From contig CAWCPV010000003.1 of assembly GCA_963797555.1 (NCBI GenBank), positions 352,001 through 416,000 on the forward strand: 64,000 nt of DNA, given 5' to 3'. Shown here piece by piece: positions 1-63,407 of the stretch (position 1 is the first letter of the stretch; every line of letters begins with the position of its first letter). The notes under the pieces are model-generated. The model searched no databases. It saw only the letters and a program-made list of their open reading frames with translations, and had not been told where the DNA came from. The position numbers and the translations under genes are program-made. Source of the stretch: an uncultured Gammaproteobacteria bacterium (GTDB taxonomy: Bacteria > Pseudomonadota > Gammaproteobacteria > CAWCPV01).

Positions 1-135
1 GCCGATCCTGGCCTTCGGGATGCCATGTTCCGACTTCGCGACGCCACGATATCTACGAGATACTGAAAAATCATCCGCGAACGATTGCAGCTCCGGGCGT
101 GGTCCAATAGCGCATCGAGATAGAGGAGCAGACCG

Positions 136-357
136 ATGCCAGAACCACGATTGACGAGACCGTTGCCGTTTTCCAGAGCCGATATTACGAGCGCGCTGGC
201 TGATCTCCTTCTCCTTCGAGCCGGGCATGCGCTGCCGGACATCAACCCTGTCGCGGAGGCGCTGGCTGACGGATCGTGTACGCTGCTGGACGTTGCGGCT
301 GCATCTGAGCGGGCGTTGGCTCCGGGCGCACCGTCACCGAGTCTGCCCGCCAGCTAA
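136..357 (+). CDS. Small hypothetical protein
   Basis: ATG preceded by strong RBS (AGAGGAG); 73 aa; no recognisable motif. Confidence 0.5.
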   Translation: MPEPRLTRPLPFSRADITSALADLLLLRAGHALPDINPVAEALADGSCTLLDVAAASERALAPGAPSPSLPAS

Positions 358-1189
358 CCACCTCCGACTTCGGCGAGGCGCTTGGCTGTCGCGTTGTCGC
401 GGGTTTCCGCGATCAGTTACGGCAAACAGTCATCAGAGCATGGCGTGATTTGCCGGGACATTACAGCTCGGAACCTTCAGCCGATCAGTTTTCCCGAATT
501 GGATCTGGGCGAGCTGACGTTCGTTCCGAAGAGCGGAGGGCCGATTGATATTTGCTCCAATTCTCGCCAGCGCGGGAGTTACCGGGGAGCCGCAGGTATT
601 CGGAGCGCGTTTTCTGGTCTTCGCGCCAACTGTTGATCAACGATGATGCCGGTCTGATGACTTCGGCGACCGAGCAGTTGTCTGGACATGCGGCGCAGAA
701 TGGAAGCGGCGCATGATTTCCGCTGTCATCGCAAGCGAATGCGAATTTGGCCGATGGCGCACCGCTGATCGGCGCGGGCAATACGGTATCGGGTGGAGTC
801 GCCACGGTAACGGGTTTGGGTAATGCGGCTGCGAAGCTGCGGACGAACTGACGGGCGTCGGGAACGTCGGCAACGTATCAAGCCCTGCGTTTTGGATGGT
901 CCCGGAGATTCCGAGATCGCAGCGGAGGCCACCGTGGCGAGTTTGTATGCTGGCGTTCCGGGCATTCAAGTTATTTGTAACCCGTGGCTGCCCAGCGGTG
1001 CATCCTACGTATTTGGAAGATCCGGCTGTGGCTCCGGTCATCGCTAGAATGGCGCTTGAACTTCCCGAATACTCCGAGCGTTTCCAGAGTTCGGACGCCA
1101 TTGGCATTATGATGGGCAGGCATTCCGATTCGAGTTCATTGTCGGGATTCAGGCCATTGGCCGAAGCTGGTATTTGCAAGGCGACTGGC

Positions 1190-1471
1190 ATGAGCCGTGA
1201 AACCATTGACCCGCACCCAAACCCGAGCCGCCGCGCGTTCATTCCAGCGCCAGTTCTGGGATTTGCCGCAAATGCGCCATTGCGGTTGCGGCCGAGCTTC
1301 GCGACTGCAGAGGCCGGTACTCCAGCTGATTGCCGTTTGCGGCTCTGGCGCGAGCCCACGGGACTTCTCGCGATGATGACCGGCGATGGGCTGCTGTTTG
1401 TGCAGCCGCTGGACGTGACCGAGTTACCCGTGGACGCGACGTTCTGCCCAGCACCGCAGGCCCTGCAGTGA
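1190..1471 (+). CDS. Hypothetical protein (3' part of ORF 896-1471; start uncertain)
   Basis: Stop overlaps the next GTG start (GTGA coupling at 1468-1471); no motif recognised. Confidence 0.3.
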   Translation: MSRETIDPHPNPSRRAFIPAPVLGFAANAPLRLRPSFATAEAGTPADCRLRLWREPTGLLAMMTGDGLLFVQPLDVTELPVDATFCPAPQALQ

Positions 1472-1860
1472 GCCGCTACGTTGTCATGTGCCGCCTGGGT
1501 GGAGACCGCCTCCAATTCGTACGCGCGTGCCTCACCGAGGTCGAGGCCCGCACGTGGGCGTCGGAGTCGCCGGACCTGTTCGCTCTGCCGCGCGAGCGCG
1601 CACTGGCGCTCTGGCTGTCCGCGACGCAGAGGCACGACACCGGGGACCATCGGCCGCCGCTACTCGAAGCTTGCGCCGCCGCGCGCGGGCTCGACGTCAC
1701 CCGAGCGCGGATGCTCCTCTGCCCTTTCGCCCGGCCCTACCCTTGGCCGGGCTTTTTTCGGGCCGCCACTGCCATCCTTGCGGCACACCATTTTCCACAC
1801 AGTCTGGCCCGCGCGCGCGGGGAGCCACCGGCTGAATGGGACAACTTCACGCCGGCGTGA
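1468..1860 (+). CDS. Hypothetical protein (VSRYVVMCRLGGDRLQFVRACLTEVEARTWA...); true end may be before the hairpin at 1729
   Basis: Coupled start and GC-rich coding-like N-terminal part; ORF runs on into the terminator and repeat array. Confidence 0.4.
   Translation: MSRYVVMCRLGGDRLQFVRACLTEVEARTWASESPDLFALPRERALALWLSATQRHDTGDHRPPLLEACAAARGLDVTRARMLLCPFARPYPWPGFFRAATAILAAHHFPHSLARARGEPPAEWDNFTPA
1729..1758 (+). terminator. Rho-independent terminator-like hairpin
   Basis: GCCCGGCC-8 nt loop-GGCCGGGC followed by TTTTTT. Confidence 0.6.
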
Positions 1861-2005
1861 AGATCTCGGCCCGCGCGCGCGGGGAGCCACCATTGTCGGG
1901 ATGGCGCCGTCTGCGAATCCAACCCCGCGCGCGCGGCAGCCACCACTCCTCAGCCTGTGGAAAACGTTCCACAGGCTGGTCTGGCCCGCGCGCGCGGGGT
2001 TTTTT
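1802..2005. CRISPR. Degenerate CRISPR-like mini-array: 4 repeats of ~29 bp, 3 spacers, no cas genes in window
   Basis: Repeats at 1802, 1864, ~1918 and 1979 share CCCGCGCGCGCGG(GGAGCCACC); periods 62/54/61 bp; R1 GTCTGGCCCGCGCGCGCGGGGAGCCACCG aligns ungapped to the type I-E repeat GTGTTCCCCGCGCCAGCGGGGATAAACCG. Confidence 0.45.
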
Positions 2006-2128
2006 GTGGGTGCCGGAGCATCGTAACAGCATCGTAATGAGCGTTACGGGCACAAACGGCCCGGTCCCTAGCACCGGCCTAGCACCCACCCCCACCGCAG
2101 ATTCCCGCACTCGCCGCAAACCCTTGTG

Positions 2129-2210
2129 TGCCCGGGGCCGGATTCGAACCGGCACGGCCGAAGCCAGAGGATTTTAAGTCCCCTGCGTCTACCCGTTCCG
2201 CCACCCGGGC
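2129..2210 (-). tRNA. tRNA-Leu (TAA); CCA not encoded
   Basis: Reverse complement GCCCGGGTGGCGGAACGGGTAGACGCAGGGGACTTAAAATCCTC...GGTTCGAATCCGGCCCCGGGCA; long variable arm. Confidence 0.95.
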
Positions 2211-2218
2211 CAGTGGCG

Positions 2219-2248
2219 ATTTTAGGGGCGGAGAATAGCCTAACGCAA
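2219..2248 (-). promoter_or_regulatory. Putative sigma70 promoter for tRNA-Leu
   Basis: TTGCGT-18 bp-TAAAAT on minus strand just upstream of the tRNA. Confidence 0.5.
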
Positions 2249-2254
2249 AAAAAA

Positions 2255-3728
2255 GCTCTTTCCGGAATCGTGTGGGTAGCAATGCCTATGGCGCGGGGGC
2301 ATCTGCCTGATCTCTGACACCAGGGGGTGTGTTGAACGGCGAGGCGGGCAGGTGGGCGAGATTGCCGGCGATGAGGTAGGCGATGGTGATGAGCGAGTGC
2401 GTGGTGCGGTAGCCCCGGGCGCGAGCCTTGGCGGCCTGGATGAGGGAGTTGATGCCCTCGGCGCGGCCGTTGGTGAGGCCCGAGTGGAATGCGGCGAGGA
2501 TGCCGTTCCAGTGCTCTTTCAGGGTAGTGGCGAGGCGCTTCATGGGCTGCAGGCGGCTAAAACGCCGTGCCCAGCTATACCAGCGCCCGAGGGCGCTCTC
2601 GGCCTGCTCGAGGGTGCTGGCCGTGGCGTAGATATCGCGCAGCGCCTCCTTGAGGCGCCAGGCACGGGCGGTCTTGAGGCGGGCGCGGGAGAGCCAGTGG
2701 AAGTCGGTGAGCTGGTCCAAGGTCCAGTCGTGGGCGTCTTTGAGCCAGGTCCAGCGGGTGCCCCTGAGGGCGGGCTCGGTCTTGATCTCCTCGCGGCGCA
2801 CCGCGTCGACCGCCTCGTTGGCGAGCTTGATGACATGGAAGGCATCGAAGCTCACCGTGGCTTTAGGCAGATGCTTGGTCACCCCGGCGAGATAAGCGGC
2901 GGACAGGTCGATGCACACCTGCTCGATGGCCTGCGGGTCGCCGCCGTGCGCCTGGAGGTCGGCGGCGAAGGCCGCCACGGTGCTCTGGTCGCGGCCCTCG
3001 CAGGCGAACAGCAGGCGTTTTCCCGTGAGGTCATGGAACAGGCTGATGTAGTGCTGTCCACGCCGGGCGGCGGTCTCGTCCAGGCCCACAGCGCTCACCT
3101 GCGAGTGGTCCTCCTGAGCGCGGGCCCTGCCTACGTAGTGATCGAGCACCCCCCACAGGCGCTCATCGCCCACACCCAGGTGCCGAGCCACGGTCGCCAC
3201 CGGCATGGCCTGGCACAGCGTGACCACCAGCGCCTCCATCAGCGCCGTGAAGCCACTGTGGGCGCGCGCCCACGGCGCTTCGACCTGGGTCGTCTTGCCG
3301 CAGGCCTCGCAGCGCACTCGCGGCAGATGCGCGTGCAGGTACGCCCGTGACTTAAAGAAGCTCAGGTGCTGCCAACTGCGCTCCCAGGTGTCGTGCACCG
3401 GCTGGCCTTGCACTCCGCAGGCCGGGCAGGCAAAGCGGCTGCCCTTGGCAAACGCCACATCGAGGTCGATGCGCCCAGCCTCGGGGTCGAACCGCACGTC
3501 GGTGACCTCCCAAGGCGCCGTCAGGCCCAGTGCCGTGGTAAACAGATGCGTGGGCTGCACGGTGCTCCCCCCTTGGATGACGGCCTGTGGATTTGTGGAC
3601 GAGTCCTGCGGAGCGGCCCCACGCGAGGGCCTCTCGCCCACCACCCCAACCACAAGATGCTGTGATAAGCGACCGGTCAGAACAGATGGTACTTGACTAC
3701 CACCACCCACACAATTGCCGAAAGAGCC
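2255..3728 (-). mobile_element. ISL3-family insertion sequence
   Basis: Imperfect terminal IRs (G)GCTCTTTC..AAT.GTGTGGGT; A8 run on both flanks (2247-2254, 3729-3736) consistent with an 8-bp target duplication. Confidence 0.9.
2286..3560 (-). CDS. ISL3 family transposase
   Basis: zf-ISL3 CPACG...CEACG, GLDET, CIDLS, FDAFHVIK, TNGRAEGINS motifs; GTG start with GGGGAG RBS. Confidence 0.95.
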   Translation of the reverse strand: MQPTHLFTTALGLTAPWEVTDVRFDPEAGRIDLDVAFAKGSRFACPACGVQGQPVHDTWERSWQHLSFFKSRAYLHAHLPRVRCEACGKTTQVEAPWARAHSGFTALMEALVVTLCQAMPVATVARHLGVGDERLWGVLDHYVGRARAQEDHSQVSAVGLDETAARRGQHYISLFHDLTGKRLLFACEGRDQSTVAAFAADLQAHGGDPQAIEQVCIDLSAAYLAGVTKHLPKATVSFDAFHVIKLANEAVDAVRREEIKTEPALRGTRWTWLKDAHDWTLDQLTDFHWLSRARLKTARAWRLKEALRDIYATASTLEQAESALGRWYSWARRFSRLQPMKRLATTLKEHWNGILAAFHSGLTNGRAEGINSLIQAAKARARGYRTTHSLITIAYLIAGNLAHLPASPFNTPPGVRDQADAPAP

Positions 3729-3781
3729 AAAAAAAACCGGCGAGGCTCGCTAAGCGAGCGCCACTGAGGAGACGTATGATA

Positions 3782-3855
3782 TGGAGGCTGGGGCCGGAAT
3801 CGAACCGACGTCCACGGCTTTGCAGGCCGCTGCATAACCACTCTGCCACCCAGCC
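3782..3855 (-). tRNA. tRNA-Cys (GCA)
   Basis: Reverse complement GGCTGGGTGGCAGAGTGGTTATGCAGCGGCCTGCAAAGCCG...GGTTCGATTCCGGCCCCAGCCTCCA. Confidence 0.97.
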
Positions 3856-3918
3856 GGATTGACCCCGTTGGGAGTCTAGAGTCTAGAGGTCGTCGCCTCG
3901 CAGCCTGACGATGGTGTT

Positions 3919-3994
<76 letters not shown>

Positions 3995-4006
3995 GGTAGA
4001 CGCCCT

Positions 4007-4034
4007 ATTTTAGGGGGGTGTCGCGACCTGTCAA
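4007..4034 (-). promoter_or_regulatory. Stable-RNA sigma70 promoter for the tRNA-Gly/Cys cluster
   Basis: TTGACA-16 bp-TAAAAT followed by a GC-rich discriminator. Confidence 0.8.
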
Positions 4035-4039
4035 GAGGG

Positions 4040-4687
4040 TTACCAGTATTTCCCCTCCGGACGCGGGCCTCCCGCCTTCGCCCCCTGCGAGCCGGCTGCC
4101 GAGGCGTGCATCTCTGCAGCCACGGCACTCACACTGACGGACTGCCACGCGGTACGCATATACATGTACATGGACCACAGGGTCAGGGCCACCGCCAGGT
4201 ACAGCAGAAGGAAACCAGCAGCGCGGGTCGGCAATTGGCCTACGGGCTCTCGATACAGAAGCAGCGAGATAGCGATCATCTGCATCATCGTTTTCACCTT
4301 TGCCACGACGGACACCGCGACGTGCGCGCGTTTACCGATCTCCGCCATCCACTCTCGCAGCGCGGAGACGACAATCTCGCGCCCGACGATGACCGCCGCT
4401 GGAACCGCCAGGAGAGGCGTGGGATCCGCCTGGACGAGGAGGACCAGGGCGATGGCCACGATCAGCTTGTCCGCCACCGGGTCGAGGAACGCCCCGAAGG
4501 CCGATGCCTGCCCCATGCGCCGCGCCAGCAGCCCGTCGAGCCAATCCGTGACCGCGGCCAGCACGAACACCACGACGGTCGCCTCGTTGGACCAGCCGAA
4601 AGGGAGGTAGAACAGGAGCACGAAGACCGGGACGAGGCCGATGCGCAGGAACGTCAGGACGTTGGGCAGATTGAGCCTAATGTCCAT
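4040..4687 (-). CDS. pgsA: CDP-diacylglycerol--glycerol-3-phosphate 3-phosphatidyltransferase
   Basis: NLPNVLT..R and TDWLDGLLARR...GAFLDPVADK motifs; conserved uvrC-pgsA-tRNA synteny. Confidence 0.97.
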   Translation of the reverse strand: MDIRLNLPNVLTFLRIGLVPVFVLLFYLPFGWSNEATVVVFVLAAVTDWLDGLLARRMGQASAFGAFLDPVADKLIVAIALVLLVQADPTPLLAVPAAVIVGREIVVSALREWMAEIGKRAHVAVSVVAKVKTMMQMIAISLLLYREPVGQLPTRAAGFLLLYLAVALTLWSMYMYMRTAWQSVSVSAVAAEMHASAAGSQGAKAGGPRPEGKYW

Positions 4688-6500
4688 GAAATGAATCGTA
4701 GATGCGACGGGCCAGATGCTCGCTGATGCCGGGCACGTTCGCCAAGTCCTCGATACCGGCGCGCGCGATCTCTTGGAGGCCTCCGAACTGCCGCAGCAAC
4801 CGCTGACGACGTTTCGGACCCAGGCCCGAAATGTCCTCCAAGGCGGAGGTGCGGCGCCCCTTGGCCCTGCGCTGCCGGTGCCCCGTAATGGCGAAACGGT
4901 GCGCCTCGTCCCTGATCTGCTGGATCAGGTGTAGGGCTGGGGAGTGACCGCCCAGACGCATCCCCGGCCCGCCTTCCGCCACGAACAGAGTCTCCAGTCC
5001 GGGCTTGCGCCCAGCTCCCTTAGCCACCGCCACCAGCGTTACGCCCGCGACCTGTAACTCTTCCAACACCTTCGCCGCCTGGCTCAGCTGGCCTTTGCCG
5101 CCGTCGATAAAAAGCACATCGGGCAGCTTTCCCTCGCCCCTCTTGAGTCGCGTGTAACGGCGCGTCAGGGCTTGGTACAGCGCGGCGTAGTCGTCGCCGG
5201 CCCCGACTCCCTCGATGTTGAACCGGCGGTAATCCGACTTCACCGGACCGTTGGCATCGAACACCACACAGGATGCCACCGTAGCTTCGCCTTGGATGTG
5301 GCTGACATCGAAGCATTCCAGACGCGTCGGGACCTGGTCGAGCCGAAGCGCCTCCTGCAGTCCGGTGAGGCGTTCGCGCAGGTTCGCCTTGCTGGTGAGG
5401 TGCTGCGTGAGCGCATGCTCCGTATTGGCCGTCGCCATCTGGAGCCACTGTCGGCGTTCACCGCGCGCTTTGTGGCGGATGCTGACACGGTGGCCGGTCT
5501 GCTCCGACAGGGCAGCTTCCAGCAGATCCAGCTCCTCGAGCGGCTGGCTGATGATGATCTCCGGGGGAACCTCCTTGCCGAGATAGTATTGAGGAAGGAA
5601 AGCGCTCAGCACGGACACCGCATCCGCGCCCTCCGGGCAGCGCGGAAAGAACATCCTGTCGCCCAGGTTGCGTCCGCCCCGGATATAGAAGACCTGGACG
5701 CAGGCCACACCCGCACCAACGGCGCTGGCGATGACATCTACCTCTCCACGCTCCGCGGCCACGTGCTGAGCATCCTGTATACGCCGCAGGCTGGAGATCT
5801 GATCGCGGTAGCGCGCCGCCCGCTCGAACCTCAACGCGGTGGAGGCGCCATCCATCCGGGCCGCCAATTCGTCCAGCACTTGCTGATTGCGTCCCTCGAG
5901 GAACCAGATCGCGTGGCGTACATCCTCTTGGTAAGTTGCCGCCTCCGCGTACCCGACGCAGGGCGCGGTACAACGGCCGATTTGATACTGCAGGCAAGGA
6001 CGGGTGCGATTGCGGAAGAAGCTGTCTTGGCACTGCCGAACCTGAAATAGCTTCTGCAGCAAGCCTAGCGTTTCACGCACCGCCCCCGCGTTGGGATAAG
6101 GCCCGAAGAAACGTCCCGGCAGGTTCTTGGCACCCCGATGGAAGCTGAGGCGGGGGAATTCGTGCTCGGACACATAGATATACGGATAGCTCTTATCGTC
6201 TCTGAGCAAAACATTATAACGCGGCCGCAACTCCTTGATCAGATTGTTCTCTAAGATCAGTGCCTCCTTCTCATTGGCGGTCACCGTGACCTGAAGATCG
6301 CGGATCTGGGTCAACAGCGCCGTGGTCTTAATCGCCAGGCCGCTGTTCCGGAAGTAGCTGGCGAGACGTTTCTTCAAGTCTCGGGCCTTGCCGACGTAGA
6401 GCACTTCCCCGCGTGCGCCGATCATCCGGTACACGCCGGGCCGGCCGGTTACGGTGCGGAGAAACGCCTTGGAATCGAACGCGGGCTTGTCGTACGGCAT
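4677..6500 (-). CDS. uvrC: Excinuclease ABC subunit C
   Basis: GIY-YIG (PGVY...YVGKA), DDKSYPY, ECFDVSH, IDGGKGQL, RDEAHRFA, HhH. Confidence 0.98.
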   Translation of the reverse strand: MPYDKPAFDSKAFLRTVTGRPGVYRMIGARGEVLYVGKARDLKKRLASYFRNSGLAIKTTALLTQIRDLQVTVTANEKEALILENNLIKELRPRYNVLLRDDKSYPYIYVSEHEFPRLSFHRGAKNLPGRFFGPYPNAGAVRETLGLLQKLFQVRQCQDSFFRNRTRPCLQYQIGRCTAPCVGYAEAATYQEDVRHAIWFLEGRNQQVLDELAARMDGASTALRFERAARYRDQISSLRRIQDAQHVAAERGEVDVIASAVGAGVACVQVFYIRGGRNLGDRMFFPRCPEGADAVSVLSAFLPQYYLGKEVPPEIIISQPLEELDLLEAALSEQTGHRVSIRHKARGERRQWLQMATANTEHALTQHLTSKANLRERLTGLQEALRLDQVPTRLECFDVSHIQGEATVASCVVFDANGPVKSDYRRFNIEGVGAGDDYAALYQALTRRYTRLKRGEGKLPDVLFIDGGKGQLSQAAKVLEELQVAGVTLVAVAKGAGRKPGLETLFVAEGGPGMRLGGHSPALHLIQQIRDEAHRFAITGHRQRRAKGRRTSALEDISGLGPKRRQRLLRQFGGLQEIARAGIEDLANVPGISEHLARRIYDSFHGH

Positions 6501-6584
6501 CGCCAGGCAATGATACCCGTTCCGTCACACCGCCGCACGCCGCCCTGAGCGCCACGGGTGCGGGAGTGAAGTGTAGGTCGGGCA

Positions 6585-8096
6585 CTACGCGCGAATATCC
6601 AGCGGGTGCCCGGCACCGTCTTTCAGGTCTATGCGCGTGATACGGTGGCCGTTGGTGTCGGCCACCCAGAGGATATCGTTCTGCACGCTCAAGCCGCCGG
6701 GCTCCCGGAACCTCAGCTCCGTTCGCAGGGTAGAGACCTCCAGGGTGTCCAGAGAAAGGGCGCGCAATTTGTCGTTATAGGAGTCGGCGATCCAAAGGCA
6801 GCGGCGCGCGGCGTCGAACGCCACTCCTAGTGGGTGTTGCAGACGGGCCGCCCTCCCGATTCCATCGGCATCGCCGAACTCGAACAGCCCCCGCCCCACC
6901 AAAGTCGCGACCTCTTCGGTGACCAGACTCAGGGCACGGATCGCCGAGGTTTCCGAGTCCGCGATGTAGAGTGTGTCCCCTCCGATGGTTAGGCCCGAGG
7001 GTTGCGCCAGGGCCGCCGTTTGGCAGGGCCCGTCCAAGATATCCTCGATTCCAGATCCGGCGTAGGCACTCAGCAGGTGGCCCACCAGATCCAGCCTCCA
7101 TACTTGGTGCTGCCCGGCCATGGCGATGTACACAGCACCGTCGCGGTAAGCCACGTCCCAAGGGGAATTGAGGGCGGTGCGCAGCGGATCCCGCAACTCG
7201 GTCGTGCGCTGTCGTCCCTGCGCCCCGGTTCCCGCGCGCGTGGAGACCCGGCCGTTACGCAAGTCGATGCGCCGCACGGCGTGATTCCCCGTATCCGCCA
7301 CAAACAGGGCATCCTGCACCTGCACCAAGCCCTGCGGGTCGCGGAACGCAGACTGCTCAGCCATGCCGTCCTTCAATCCCGCCGCCCCCGACCCGAAACT
7401 GCGCCGAACCACGCCGGACACATCCAACTCCAGCACGCGATGGTGCCCGGTGTCGCTGACGTAGAGACACTCTTCCGTCGCCAGGATTTTTCCCGGGAAA
7501 CTGAGCAGCCCTGCATCGGCTTCGGGCCTGCCACCGACAGCGAGGGAATGGGGTCTCCTCAGGCCCTTGCGTTCGGCGACCAGCAGATTTCCCAGATGAG
7601 GTCGTCGAGCTTGGGCGCGCCGGGCCTCCCCGGAAGCACGCCGACCACGTATCCTTCCGGATCGATGAAGACGACCGACGGCCAAGCCCGTATCGCATAC
7701 TGCTGCCACAGCCGGAAGGCCGGGTCGTTGGCGACGGGATGCCGGATCCCGTACCGATTGATGGCCTTTTGCAGGTGGTCGGCGATTCGTTCGTGAGGAT
7801 ACTTTTGGGGAGTGGATCCCGATAACCGTGAGGTCAGCGGAATACTTCTCTTCTAGGTAACGCAGGTCCGGCAGGACGTGCAAGCAATTGATACACGAAT
7901 AGGTCCAGAAGTCGAGGAGCACCACTTTCCCGCGCTGGCCAGAGACGGTCAGCGGTTGAATGGTGTTGAACCACTCCAGATCGCCAGGCAACTCCGGCGC
8001 CCGCACACGCGCATCTCCCACCACCCTGCACCTCTCCCGCAGGACGCGCCCCCTGCTCTGCAGGCCGTCCTCACGTATCCAGGACCGGCCGGGCAT
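6585..8096 (-). CDS. Thioredoxin-like + NHL-repeat protein (compensating frameshifts ~7570-7800)
   Basis: LDFWTYSCINC, GIHSPK, repeated ADTGNH/ADSE NHL motifs; alternative frame restores QYAIRAWPSVVFIDPEG. Confidence 0.85.
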   Translation of the reverse strand: MPGRSWIREDGLQSRGRVLRERCRVVGDARVRAPELPGDLEWFNTIQPLTVSGQRGKVVLLDFWTYSCINCLHVLPDLRYLEEKYSADLTVIGIHSPKVSSRTNRRPPAKGHQSVRDPASRRQRPGLPAVAAVCDTGLAVGRLHRSGRIRGRRASGEARRAQARRPHLGNLLVAERKGLRRPHSLAVGGRPEADAGLLSFPGKILATEECLYVSDTGHHRVLELDVSGVVRRSFGSGAAGLKDGMAEQSAFRDPQGLVQVQDALFVADTGNHAVRRIDLRNGRVSTRAGTGAQGRQRTTELRDPLRTALNSPWDVAYRDGAVYIAMAGQHQVWRLDLVGHLLSAYAGSGIEDILDGPCQTAALAQPSGLTIGGDTLYIADSETSAIRALSLVTEEVATLVGRGLFEFGDADGIGRAARLQHPLGVAFDAARRCLWIADSYNDKLRALSLDTLEVSTLRTELRFREPGGLSVQNDILWVADTNGHRITRIDLKDGAGHPLDIRA

Positions 8097-62693: not shown

Positions 62694-63407
62694 GTGCTAT
62701 CCTTCGTGCAGTCACTTCACGACCTGAACCGCCAGCCGCAGCATGTCATCCAGCGCGGCAACAACCGCCAGGTGATCTTCGCCGCGGATGCGGACTATCA
62801 GTTTTTTCGCGATGCCCTGGTGGAAGCGGCAAGTCAGCATGGTCTGTCGATCCACGCGTATGTCTGGATGACCAACCACATCCATCTCCTGGCCACACCT
62901 GAATGCGACCACAGCATCAGCAAAGTCCTCCAGTCAGTGGGTCGGCGTTATGTGCAGTACTTCAACTTCGCATACCGGCGCAGCGGCACCTTGTGGGAAG
63001 GCCGCTACCGGGCGACGGTCGTCGATAGCGAGCGGTATCTGCTGACGCTGATGCGCTACATCGAGCTCAACCCGGTGCGGGCGGCCCTGGTGGCGCACCC
63101 CAGGGATTACCCCTGGTCCAGCTACCGGCGCAATGCGCATGGCGAGTCGGGATTGAACGCAGACTGGATGAGGCCGCACGAGGAATATCTGCGCTTGGGC
63201 CTTACTCCGGCGGAGCGGCAAGGTGCCTACCGGCAATTGTTCCGGGCGGCCGTCTCCGGCAACGACCTGAGGGAGATCCGTGAGTGCACGCACAAGGGCT
63301 GGGCGCTCGGCGGCAACCGGTTCAGGGACCAGGTCGAGGCGCTGGGGCAGCGGCGTGCAGCGTCCAAGGGTGTGGGCAGGCCGAGAAAGGACGATCATCG
63401 CGTCTGA
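62694..63407 (+). CDS. REP-associated tyrosine transposase (RAYT, IS200/Y1 family); N-terminus uncertain
   Basis: HVIQRGNNRQ.IF, YVWMTNHIHLL (HuH), GTLWEGRY, YIELNPVRA, YPWSSY. Confidence 0.92.
   Translation: MLSFVQSLHDLNRQPQHVIQRGNNRQVIFAADADYQFFRDALVEAASQHGLSIHAYVWMTNHIHLLATPECDHSISKVLQSVGRRYVQYFNFAYRRSGTLWEGRYRATVVDSERYLLTLMRYIELNPVRAALVAHPRDYPWSSYRRNAHGESGLNADWMRPHEEYLRLGLTPAERQGAYRQLFRAAVSGNDLREIRECTHKGWALGGNRFRDQVEALGQRRAASKGVGRPRKDDHRV

Follow-up and report, generated by a model that had tools for sequence, protein, structure and literature searches.

What does an array do that has the form of a type I-E array of CRISPR (clusters of regularly interspaced short palindromic repeats), stands apart from any CRISPR-associated (Cas) genes, and carries spacers that fold back on themselves? 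The question is raised by positions 1802-2007 of a 64,000-nt stretch of DNA from an uncultured gammaproteobacterium (GenBank assembly GCA_963797555.1, contig CAWCPV010000003.1, positions 352,001 to 416,000; the whole stretch is called the window), for which a sequence-only reading had proposed a Cas-less mini-array with a different palindrome in every spacer. We find that the repeats very probably constitute a genuine CRISPR-like array, Cas-less and derived from type I-E, that is carried by a mobile element, here called E1, and we weigh what such an array might be doing there.

Form and location of the array

The four ~29-nt repeats, R1 to R4, share the core CCCGCGCGCGCGG and follow one another at anchor-to-anchor spacings of 62, 54 and 61 nt (Table 1), so that both the positions and the periods given in the sequence-only reading are borne out, as is the type I-E likeness in length, spacing, hairpin and ACC end. 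With at most one mismatch, the core matches the window nine times on both strands, against a mean of 2.25 in shuffled sequence, where none of 100 shuffles reached nine. R4 has its first 21 nt in common with R1. The 5' part of R3 resembles the repeats of two related arrays, one in a sister element (E2) and one on a metagenome contig (L117), and 16 nt of R3 are perfectly complementary to R4. The array lies, as had been claimed, between a terminator and a last repeat ending in a T-run: the upstream hairpin proper spans 1729-1752, the R4 hairpin spans 1985-1998, and both are terminator-like on the plus strand, an upstream arrangement that also precedes the E2 array. We take the plus strand as the orientation of the array, since it fits both terminators as well as the form of the host repeat (GGGGA...ACC). 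Folded as a whole, the array RNA reaches -142.6 kcal/mol (z = -6.3).

The proposed location on a mobile genetic element (MGE) beside a leucine transfer RNA gene (tRNA-Leu) likewise stands. A perfect direct repeat of 61 bp, made of the 3' part of tRNA-Leu, marks the two ends of the element, and the array falls between them; E1 is a decayed, capsid-encoding, satellite-like integrative element of ~9.4 kb, and the array occupies its tRNA-Leu end, that of the right attachment site (attR), into which tRNA-Leu transcription reads. Of the integrase, ParB and cas genes for which the sequence-only reading had proposed to inspect the contig to the left of the window, E1 carries an integrase gene in pieces, and there are no cas genes near the array.

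Two alternatives named in that reading, a dispersed repeat family and a translated repeat, were examined and rejected. Dispersed palindromes of the repetitive extragenic palindrome (REP) or bacterial interspersed mosaic element (BIME) kind do not account for the core, whose exact form occurs only at the four array sites and one unrelated site on contig C13 in the 5.35-Mb assembly (20 contigs, 84.6% complete); in an nhmmer search with a profile of 10 repeats, the top eight matches all fell in the E1 and E2 arrays and the rest were noise (E at least 9.7). Nor are the repeats coding: the unit length of 61 nt is not divisible by 3, a terminator precedes the array, and the open reading frames (ORFs) that cross it take the repeats in differing frames. 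The type I-E ruler is shared by type IV-A3 arrays; a search for the type IV effector Csf2 (TIGR03115) gave no match, an absence that is not proven in an assembly 84.6% complete.

Table 1 Features of the array, of the surrounding element and of the loci compared with it. Positions are those of the window unless a contig (C9, C3) is named; identities to the host type I-E repeat are gapless
Feature	Position	Strand	Remarks
Capsid gene remnant (pseudogene) of E1	133..1173	+	tblastn with the intact C6 paralogue
Small ORF 3' of the capsid gene, conserved in the family	1193..1471	+	Homologues: C6 88-aa ORF, E2 90-aa ORF
Last small ORF of E1	1468..1730	+	Stop lost, frame continues to 1860
Terminator-like hairpin and T-run closing the capsid operon	1729..1758	+	8 G-C pairs, 8-nt loop, TTTTTT
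'Leader' between terminator and R1	1759..1801	+	43 nt
Repeat R1	1802..1830	+	20/28 identical to host I-E repeat; matches host pattern CCCGCGCNCGCGGGGA
Spacer 1	1831..1863	+	Perfect 18-nt palindrome at 1845-1862, stem 9, loop 0
Repeat R2	1864..1892	+	24 nt the same as R1; 19/28 identical to host repeat; matches host pattern CCCGCGCNCGCGGGGA
Spacer 2	1893..1917	+	Short, 25 nt; best perfect stem 3 bp
Repeat R3	1918..1946	+	Degenerate copy; weak fold, -5.7 kcal/mol
Spacer 3	1947..1978	+	Hairpin 1951-1978 fills nearly all; perfect 12-bp stem, 4-nt loop
Repeat R4	1979..2007	+	Truncated past the hairpin, then T-run; terminal terminator of the element
Conserved family end segment	1991..2066	+	CGTAA/GTTACG repeats; direct 10-mers at 2017-2026 and 2028-2037
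attR, 61-bp direct repeat	2121..2181		100% identical to C3:344695-344755, 9.4 kb upstream, outside the window
tRNA-Leu(taa), integration target	2128..2210	-	ARAGORN; Rfam tRNA, 57.8 bits
Y1_Tnp (IS200-like/RAYT-type) gene	62694-63407	+	Protospacer of E2 spacer S5 at 62973-63000
Host cas6e	C9:245988-246737		
Longest perfect stem per slot, E1 array			9, 3, 12 bp
Longest perfect stem per slot, E2 array			9, 9, 3, 3, 4, 3 bp
Longest perfect stem per slot, L117 array			7, 4, 12, 12 bp

Likeness to the host type I-E repeats

The host Cas6e that the sequence-only reading had supposed is present: contig C9 carries a complete type I-E set (cas3, cse1, cse2, cas7, cas5, cas6e, cas1e, cas2e) together with an array of 55 repeats (C9:241459-244771), in which the period is 61 nt in 51 of 54 intervals and 51 of 54 units have C or T immediately after the 28-nt repeat. 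A specific link between this system and the E1 array is CCCGCGCNCGCGGGGA, a 16-nt pattern covering the stem, loop and cut site of the host repeat, which has 57 matches in the genome, 55 of them in the host array, two in R1 and R2, and none elsewhere; versions one base shorter add R4, then R3, and nothing else. The hairpin of R1, R2 and R4 copies the stem and loop of the host repeat, and the full Cas6e-site hairpin (G-C stem, tetraloop, GGGG/A, the slash marking the cut) is found in R1 and R2, R4 having the hairpin only and R3 being without it. By eye, R1 and R2 differ from the host repeat in the 5' flank, in one loop base and in three handle bases. The 3' handle, AGCCACC here against ATAGACC in the host (4/7, by eye), is not like that of the cognate system, and this AGCCACC tail is the part that is conserved among all three arrays of the kind (E1, E2 and L117).

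The C9 operon is the only type I-E cas operon in the genome; none adjoins the E1 array, and no A+T-rich leader with a promoter is found there. The best matches of the 43-nt leader elsewhere in the genome (18/20, inside an insertion sequence (IS) gene, E 7.6) amount to chance multiplied by copy number. Rfam gave no CRISPR-DR match at 1400-2300 even at E up to 10, genuine host type I-E repeats themselves reaching just 19.8 bits against a cut-off of 35, so that the comparison has no power here; above threshold it found tRNA-Leu only, its weak small-RNA matches being terminator look-alikes, and it found nothing on L117.

Outside the genome, a search of 7.3 Gb of plasmid sequence gave four matches, of which two (H10 and H11) spanned two repeats. 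H10, on the Streptomyces plasmid NZ_CP038146.1, is an unannotated type I-E array with a 61-nt period, 1.2 kb from cas3-casA-casB; the match is weak (E 0.08) and is driven in part by the palindromic core. The host and Streptomyces arrays resemble the E1 array in the 28-29-nt repeat, the 61-nt period, the stem, the tetraloop, GGGG/A and the ACC followed by a variable base. Unlike them, the E1 array has no adjacent cas genes or recognisable leader, has the handle AGCCACC and hairpins as spacers, and ends in a repeat fused to a T-run.

Two further observations concern the CRISPR content of the host. Spacer 37 of the host type I-E array matches the host chromosome at 33 of 33 positions (C3:928511-928543) and at 32 of 33 at C3:928370, in a repetitive region, and this self-targeting raises the question whether the host type I-E system is active. 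The genome also holds a dense CRISPR load, with at least six arrays (up to 73 repeats) on C2, C4, C7, C9, C17 and C20 and several cas1 loci (nine Cas1 matches, some of them fragments).

Hairpin spacers and their conservation

The second peculiarity of the array is in its spacers. The palindrome of spacer 1 and the hairpin that makes up almost the whole of spacer 3 are as the sequence-only reading described them. Its claim that every spacer is palindromic has to be reduced to two of the three: GATGGCGCCGTC in spacer 2 can be paired by eye with five of six Watson-Crick pairs and one G-T, but the longest perfect stem of this spacer is ordinary, as the spacers of the host's six CRISPR arrays, 196 in all, mostly have stems of 3-4 bp. 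Against this comparison set, stems of at least 7 bp are found in 7 of the 13 slots of the three arrays and in 4 of 196 host spacers (Fisher p = 1.6e-7), and stems of at least 9 bp in 6 of 13 and 1 of 196, respectively. The E1 array alone, with two of its three slots, still differs from the 1 of 196 (Fisher p = 4.6e-4), and given the background of such hairpins with stems of at least 9 bp on contigs C3 and C4 (0.137/kb), the Poisson probability of two or more in 206 bp is 3.9e-4.

Conservation points the same way. The first slots of the E1 and E2 arrays are homologous, 24 of 32 positions agreeing by eye, and the E2 palindrome, CTTCACGGCGCCGTGAAG, differs from that of E1 at 2 of 18 positions, which form a symmetric complementary pair (GCCGGC against GGCGCC). 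Given two changes, the chance of such a compensatory outcome is about 1 in 50 (1/17 x 1/3). Since this pair has arisen while the coding DNA flanking the two arrays is 74% identical, the first-slot palindrome is under selection and no random spacer; as judged from sequence comparison, these data show the hairpin units to be selected structures rather than immune memories. A site related to the spacer-1 palindrome, AACCTCCCGCCGGCGTGAGGTT, occurs outside any array, adjoining AGCCACC, in an intergenic region of a further family member, E3. Within this region (C3:313880-314165) there are in addition two direct repeats of ~30 nt, and behind each of them stands a long palindrome, with a stem of 15 bp in one case.

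A comparison of the spacers with phage, plasmid and genome data, as proposed in the sequence-only reading, gave no targets. Neither in the genome nor among 50,697 phage records and 72,556 plasmids does any of the three E1 spacers have a match, spacer 3 having only a chance 15-mer, inside a PIN-toxin gene and not at a promoter; the four hairpin spacers of the E1 and E2 arrays taken together gave no match in the same collections, and comparison of the spacers with the other family members gave nothing above chance.

Related arrays in a sister element and a metagenome contig

The array in E2 (C3:332797-333157) lies ~21 kb upstream, outside the window and 1.4 kb inside the end of its element, and is likewise Cas-less. 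Its six units have the repeat GCAGACCCCTCGCGCGCGCGGAGCCACC, identical to the host repeat at 18 of 28 positions and to R1 at 21 of 28, with the tail AGCCACC at tail-to-tail distances of 60, 61, 61, 61 and 54 nt; the three middle repeats are identical, as in a normal array, and the last two are damaged. The first two slots are hairpins, the first of which is terminator-like on the minus strand, and the other four are guide-like, with unique spacers of 32-33 nt.

One of the six E2 spacers, S5, has protospacer matches, with spacer-exact limits. It matches a Y1_Tnp gene (Table 1) that is present in four near-identical copies, the others being at C3:779169, C3:781486 and C4:653849; two copies match at 31/33, and two others at 26/27 and 26/28. 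By eye, the match takes in the final base of the upstream repeat and extends up to where the following repeat starts, and S5 has the sense of the non-coding strand of the gene. Acquisition by type I-E Cas1-Cas2 works with a ruler and leaves such exact spacer traces. The limits of S5, the 61-nt spacing and the C or T that comes after ACC in all four of the guide-like units suggest, on sequence grounds, the trace expected from this process.

The third array, with the repeat GACCCCGCCCACACGCGCGCGGAGCCACC and spacings of 61, 61 and 61 nt, is on L117, a metagenome contig of 2.1 kb. In the 450 bp upstream of its repeats (70-520) there are some 8-10 more perfect palindromes at intervals of 30-60 nt, with no repeats between them; by eye, many keep an ATAAT-like centre while their arms vary. 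Downstream, the contig has small ORFs, one of them DUF7659.

Relation to known systems

Viruses and proviruses carry Cas-less mini-arrays of one or two spacers, with repeats identical to those of the host and spacers against related viruses (PMC11656645). The E1 array resembles them as a short Cas-less array on a mobile element whose host has the matching CRISPR type, and its E2 sister has guide-like spacers; it differs from them in that the repeats here are 18-20/28 identical to the host's and have another 3' handle, that the carrier is satellite-like, and that about half of the spacer slots are perfect hairpins, one of them conserved between paralogues. Solitary repeat units and RNA anti-CRISPRs (Racrs) of phages, on the other hand, inhibit type I-E, I-F, I-C and V-A systems (PMC10651486). 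With these, RacrIE1 and RacrIE2 included, the array has in common that a repeat is mimicked on an MGE and that the Cas6-binding hairpin is kept while the rest has diverged, and R4, like the terminal hairpin of every family member checked, resembles a solitary repeat hairpin ended by a terminator. As is typical of Racrs, the array presents a host-like repeat unit on an MGE away from cas genes. Racrs are single units, however, often directly behind a promoter and beside anti-CRISPR (acr) genes, whereas in E1 there are four units, set at CRISPR spacing, for which neither a promoter is predicted nor an acr recognised. The array therefore resembles both viral mini-arrays and Racr or solitary repeat units, and is a full member of neither.

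Two further systems show some likeness. In CreA and crlRNA mini-arrays (bioRxiv 10.1101/2023.03.03.530964, 10.1101/2024.10.29.618823), a non-immune 'spacer' stands between degenerate repeats and Cas effectors are reprogrammed, but the promoters of cas, toxin or defence genes are matched in part by such spacers, and no match of this sort is found here. The solo vrRNAs of VIPR systems that satellites encode (bioRxiv 10.64898/2026.10.15.759431) are orphan guides without protein genes that divert the RNA-guided machine of a phage to repetitive host DNA, to which the sole protospacer found, that of S5 in a multi-copy host gene, is a parallel; vrRNAs, however, are runs of GGYNN units with a 40-nt tail, and the E1 array is not a member. 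As a candidate explanation VIPR was rejected, the seven elements of the family having no run of four or more GGYNN units and the genome none of six or more. Among the titles and abstract openings listed by our literature searches, there was neither a satellite-borne CRISPR array on a capsid-encoding element nor natural arrays with mostly hairpin spacers.

Weighing the explanations

As an explanation we tentatively favour, with limited confidence, that the array RNA would be a crRNA mimic that ties up Cas6e or gives dead-end Cascade complexes. The reasons are that the hairpin and cut site have been kept, that all three arrays have conserved a handle which the host does not have, and that self-paired, conserved spacers are unfit as guides. 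Transcription would proceed along the plus strand after the operon terminator and end at the R4 hairpin and T-run. As the host repeat's stem, loop and cut site have their copies in R1, R2 and the R4 hairpin, a transcript would be expected to be bound and cut by host Cas6e, the predicted cuts falling at R1 and R2; the host Cas1-Cas2 adaptation machinery might extend the array, as the E2 sister array would indicate. Sequestration of Cas6e or Cascade by the mimic RNA would then provide the satellite with a Racr-like counter-defence.

Several findings weigh against this explanation. E1 is decayed, stops interrupting its capsid gene and its integrase and primase being fragmented; the leader has no predicted sigma-70-like promoter; and no acr-like genes were recognised near the array with the general family libraries Pfam and PHROG, neither of which is acr-specific. 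The repeats of E2 and L117 fold at -3.7 and -6.2 kcal/mol, no better than shuffles, so that a role as a Cas6e sponge cannot be the function of the whole family. With its four guide-like spacers and its protospacer match, the E2 array fits an ordinary guide array better. Among 15 distinct palindromes from L117, E1, E2 and the E3 intergenic region, 11 have a loop of 0 or 1, and the palindromes have no wobble pairs and have sharp ends; being centre-perfect and wobble-free, they point to DNA symmetry rather than to RNA hairpins. Moreover, only three arrays of the kind are known, two of them paralogues in one genome. In the E1 copy the array may no longer be in use, and, given the pseudogenised element, the one degenerate repeat and the one shortened spacer, it is perhaps decaying whatever the function in the family.

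The rival explanations account for some of these points. Somewhat unlikely, in our estimate, is an ordinary offensive mini-array by which the satellite borrows host type I-E Cascade and Cas3 against rival mobile elements, and we rate no higher the corollary that its hairpin spacers guide these to palindromic operators or terminators of competitors, which are hard to mutate. This is the known role of viral mini-arrays (PMC11656645), and it agrees with the E2 spacers, which are unique, 32-33 nt long, 61 nt apart, with C or T at the position derived from the protospacer adjacent motif in 4 of 4 cases and one protospacer of exact limits, as well as with the site AACCTCCCGCCGGCGTGAGGTT, related to the spacer-1 palindrome, in the palindrome-rich region of E3. 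Yet the repeats of viral mini-arrays equal those of their hosts, whereas the present ones are 18-20/28 identical and have another handle; the E1 spacers and the four hairpin spacers lack a match in the genome, phages, plasmids and family members; the inherited, symmetric first-slot palindrome sits leader-proximal, where the newest spacers are expected; and strongly self-paired spacers are poor guides, the sole protospacer being in a multi-copy host gene. It is unlikely, too, that a lineage of satellite arrays derived from type I-E has had its slots taken over by selected perfect palindromes or hairpins, the architecture, together with the host Cas1-Cas2 ruler still able to extend it, being exapted as a scaffold for a changing set of structured modules, and equally so that such modules are decoys for Cas6e or Cascade, or for DNA- or RNA-binding regulators of helper or rival phages; a CRISPR array would then serve another end than the storage of guides.

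The palindromes might instead act as DNA, being sites for dimeric regulators or for excision or packaging proteins, operator decoys, or cruciform or insulator structures beside the element's attachment site (attP) and the incoming transcription of the tRNA operon, an idea that we think quite unlikely, along with its companion that the CRISPR-like repeats are merely a scaffold, perhaps expandable by Cas1-Cas2. Perfect Watson-Crick palindromes with sharp ends and minimal loops would be understandable on this basis, as a hairpin loop needs none of these; so would the palindromes upstream on L117 without repeats between them, the long palindromes and the spacer-1-like site beside AGCCACC outside any array in E3, the first E2 palindrome with its terminator-like form on the minus strand, and the tRNA-Leu transcription that enters the element end. 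It leaves unexplained, however, the 61-nt ruler, the type I-E hairpin identity of R1 and R2, and the spacer-exact E2 protospacer; as the palindromes all differ, it calls for many binders or for one structure-specific binder; the varying arms and constant ATAAT-like centre on L117 are, by eye, the pattern of a folded hairpin and not of a duplex site; and no known system of such a kind can be named. That the array is a relic with no function at present we regard as very unlikely; on this view a dead element would carry a dead array, or a terminator duplicated in tandem, and the type I-E likeness would be due in part to the low complexity of G+C-rich hairpins. The pseudogenised element, the degenerate R3, a spacer 2 that is 7 nt short, and the identity of R4 with the family terminator, which by its stem CCCCGC/GCGGGG belongs to a common type of terminator, would all suit a relic, as would single repeats that fold no better than shuffles and give nothing above the Rfam threshold. 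Against it, R1, R2 and R4 keep 21-24 identical bases, the 5.35 Mb contain no further occurrence of the host-repeat pattern, an intact sister element and an unrelated metagenome contig have hairpin spacers as well, and the change in the shared palindrome is compensatory.

The element and its family

E1 encodes pieces of a tyrosine integrase, an HTH_17 excisionase-like protein, a primase/helicase, a Nu1-like small terminase (TerS) and a capsid protein (PF25209). The capsid remnant consists of three pieces in different frames, 50-63% identical to the paralogue on contig C6 and with frame switches in tblastx; their internal stops are one TAA, three TGA, and one TGA plus one TAG, respectively. The C6 paralogue is intact, with 359 aa (Pfam PF25209, Phage_capsid_4, E 5.6e-20). 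The small ORF that follows (1193..1471) shares the C-terminal motif ...QPLDVTE.P... with its C6 and E2 homologues and has no Pfam or PHROG family match. ORFs similar to the last one (1468..1730) precede the terminator in E2 and C6, and its C6 counterpart, too, has no Pfam or PHROG family match.

The genome has at least seven related capsid-encoding, satellite-like elements of ~10 kb, E1 included, and six members are seen at different tRNA genes. E2 (C3:324843-334712) is bounded by a 54-bp attachment repeat; further members are at C6:~106100-116400, C4:~825800-832500, C14:~478900-479100, C3:~812700-812850 and C3:~313000-316800, the last being E3, which is recognised by internal-gene homology only. 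At the tRNA-proximal end of all six members read (E1, E2, E4-E7) there is a G+C hairpin (CCCCGC..GCGGGG) with a T-run, followed in five of the six by CGTAAC/GTTACG repeats and in E7 by a variant (CTGTAAC, GTTACA). R4 is this terminal hairpin, joining the family sequence at GGGG/TTTTTTGTG; the hairpin with the TTTTTTGTG junction ends four other members, and a variant, GGGGTTCTTT, ends a fifth. Copies of the conserved end segment (1991..2066), 79-93% identical, lie at C6:106212, C3:334524, C4:825920 and C14:478961, in every case with the 3' end of a tRNA gene, a different one each time, at a distance of 60-90 bp, and we regard the segment as a candidate for the arm sites of the integrase or excisionase.

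Across the family, a cargo spot separates the last of the conserved ORFs from the tRNA; E2 has a RelE/HigB-like pair and a secreted protein there, and E7 has large genes. The latter (C3:803001-813100, positions 966-7349) include ORFs of 1316, 326 and 460 aa among others and may be a defence island. Promoter prediction at five element ends found none. Ahead of the terminal hairpin, four element ends have the common motif GACGCCCCAGGCGCCGCGATCTC...CATAGGGG...AGYACC; a conserved small RNA upstream of the family terminator was rejected, as an alignment of four copies gave no convincing structure beyond the terminator. In E2 there is, in addition, a 75-bp tandem duplication (C3:330680-330829), of which E3 has a 96% identical inverted copy at 316718-316816.

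Beyond the element, the window has an ISL3-family transposase gene (DDE_Tnp_ISL3, HTH, zinc ribbon; 2286-3710, minus strand) inserted between tRNA-Leu and tRNA-Cys. Long ORFs, the second of which resembles UvrC by eye, follow the tRNA-Gly, tRNA-Cys and tRNA-Leu genes.

Searches for further arrays and relatives

Of the 33 stretches that came out of the metagenome scan, L117 is the one true homologue. In species-representative genomes, 86 stretches were found, all of them single chance matches in G+C-rich coding DNA except L059, a Burkholderiales metagenome-assembled genome with a perfect 63-bp tandem repeat containing the box found in L166. The first two-repeat pattern had no match in viral contigs; single-repeat patterns gave 25 and 9 stretches there, among which only L166 was repetitive. 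L166 (an IMG/VR viral contig, ~2060-3110, minus strand) has ~17 tandem units with AGGTCAACCCA and (G)AGCAACGCGCGCGGAGCCA boxes, spaced 48 nt in 10 of 16 intervals and 96 nt in three more, and has 15 nt in common with the L117 repeat; as its period is a multiple of 3 and the relation is unclear, we did not use it as a relative. Patterns of three tails gave 115 stretches, with 252 of 257 matches at a 60-nt period of coding type. Two other candidates, L248 and L278, were set aside as ordinary viral type I-E-like arrays, with the tail motif on the other side of the hairpin and spacers that are not long hairpins. With the patterns used, species-representative genomes and viral contigs yielded no array of this kind.

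The genome collections contain no close relatives of the host. Forty genomes of the same class gave just two short chance matches, and a capsid protein search gave five distant matches (27-31% identity) in 400 genomes of the class and no relatives in viral contigs; the genome with the best capsid match (G367) has no hairpins with a stem of at least 8 bp and a different gene order, and one match (G307), flagged as unpublished, was not used for any claim. A search of sequencing runs for the stretch gave no RNA run, and the two DNA data sets that came up have mostly tRNA-like contigs from other organisms.

Implications

Cas-less mini-arrays and single-repeat RNA anti-CRISPRs are already known from phages and plasmids. 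If the array RNA is a crRNA mimic, RNA anti-CRISPRs would include array-shaped mimics in addition to single repeats, and satellites would join phages as their carriers. If, on the other hand, the palindromes are working parts, the architecture of a CRISPR array would have been reused for another purpose. The system also offers a natural comparison between the hairpin-competent repeats of E1 and the hairpin-poor repeats of E2 and L117.

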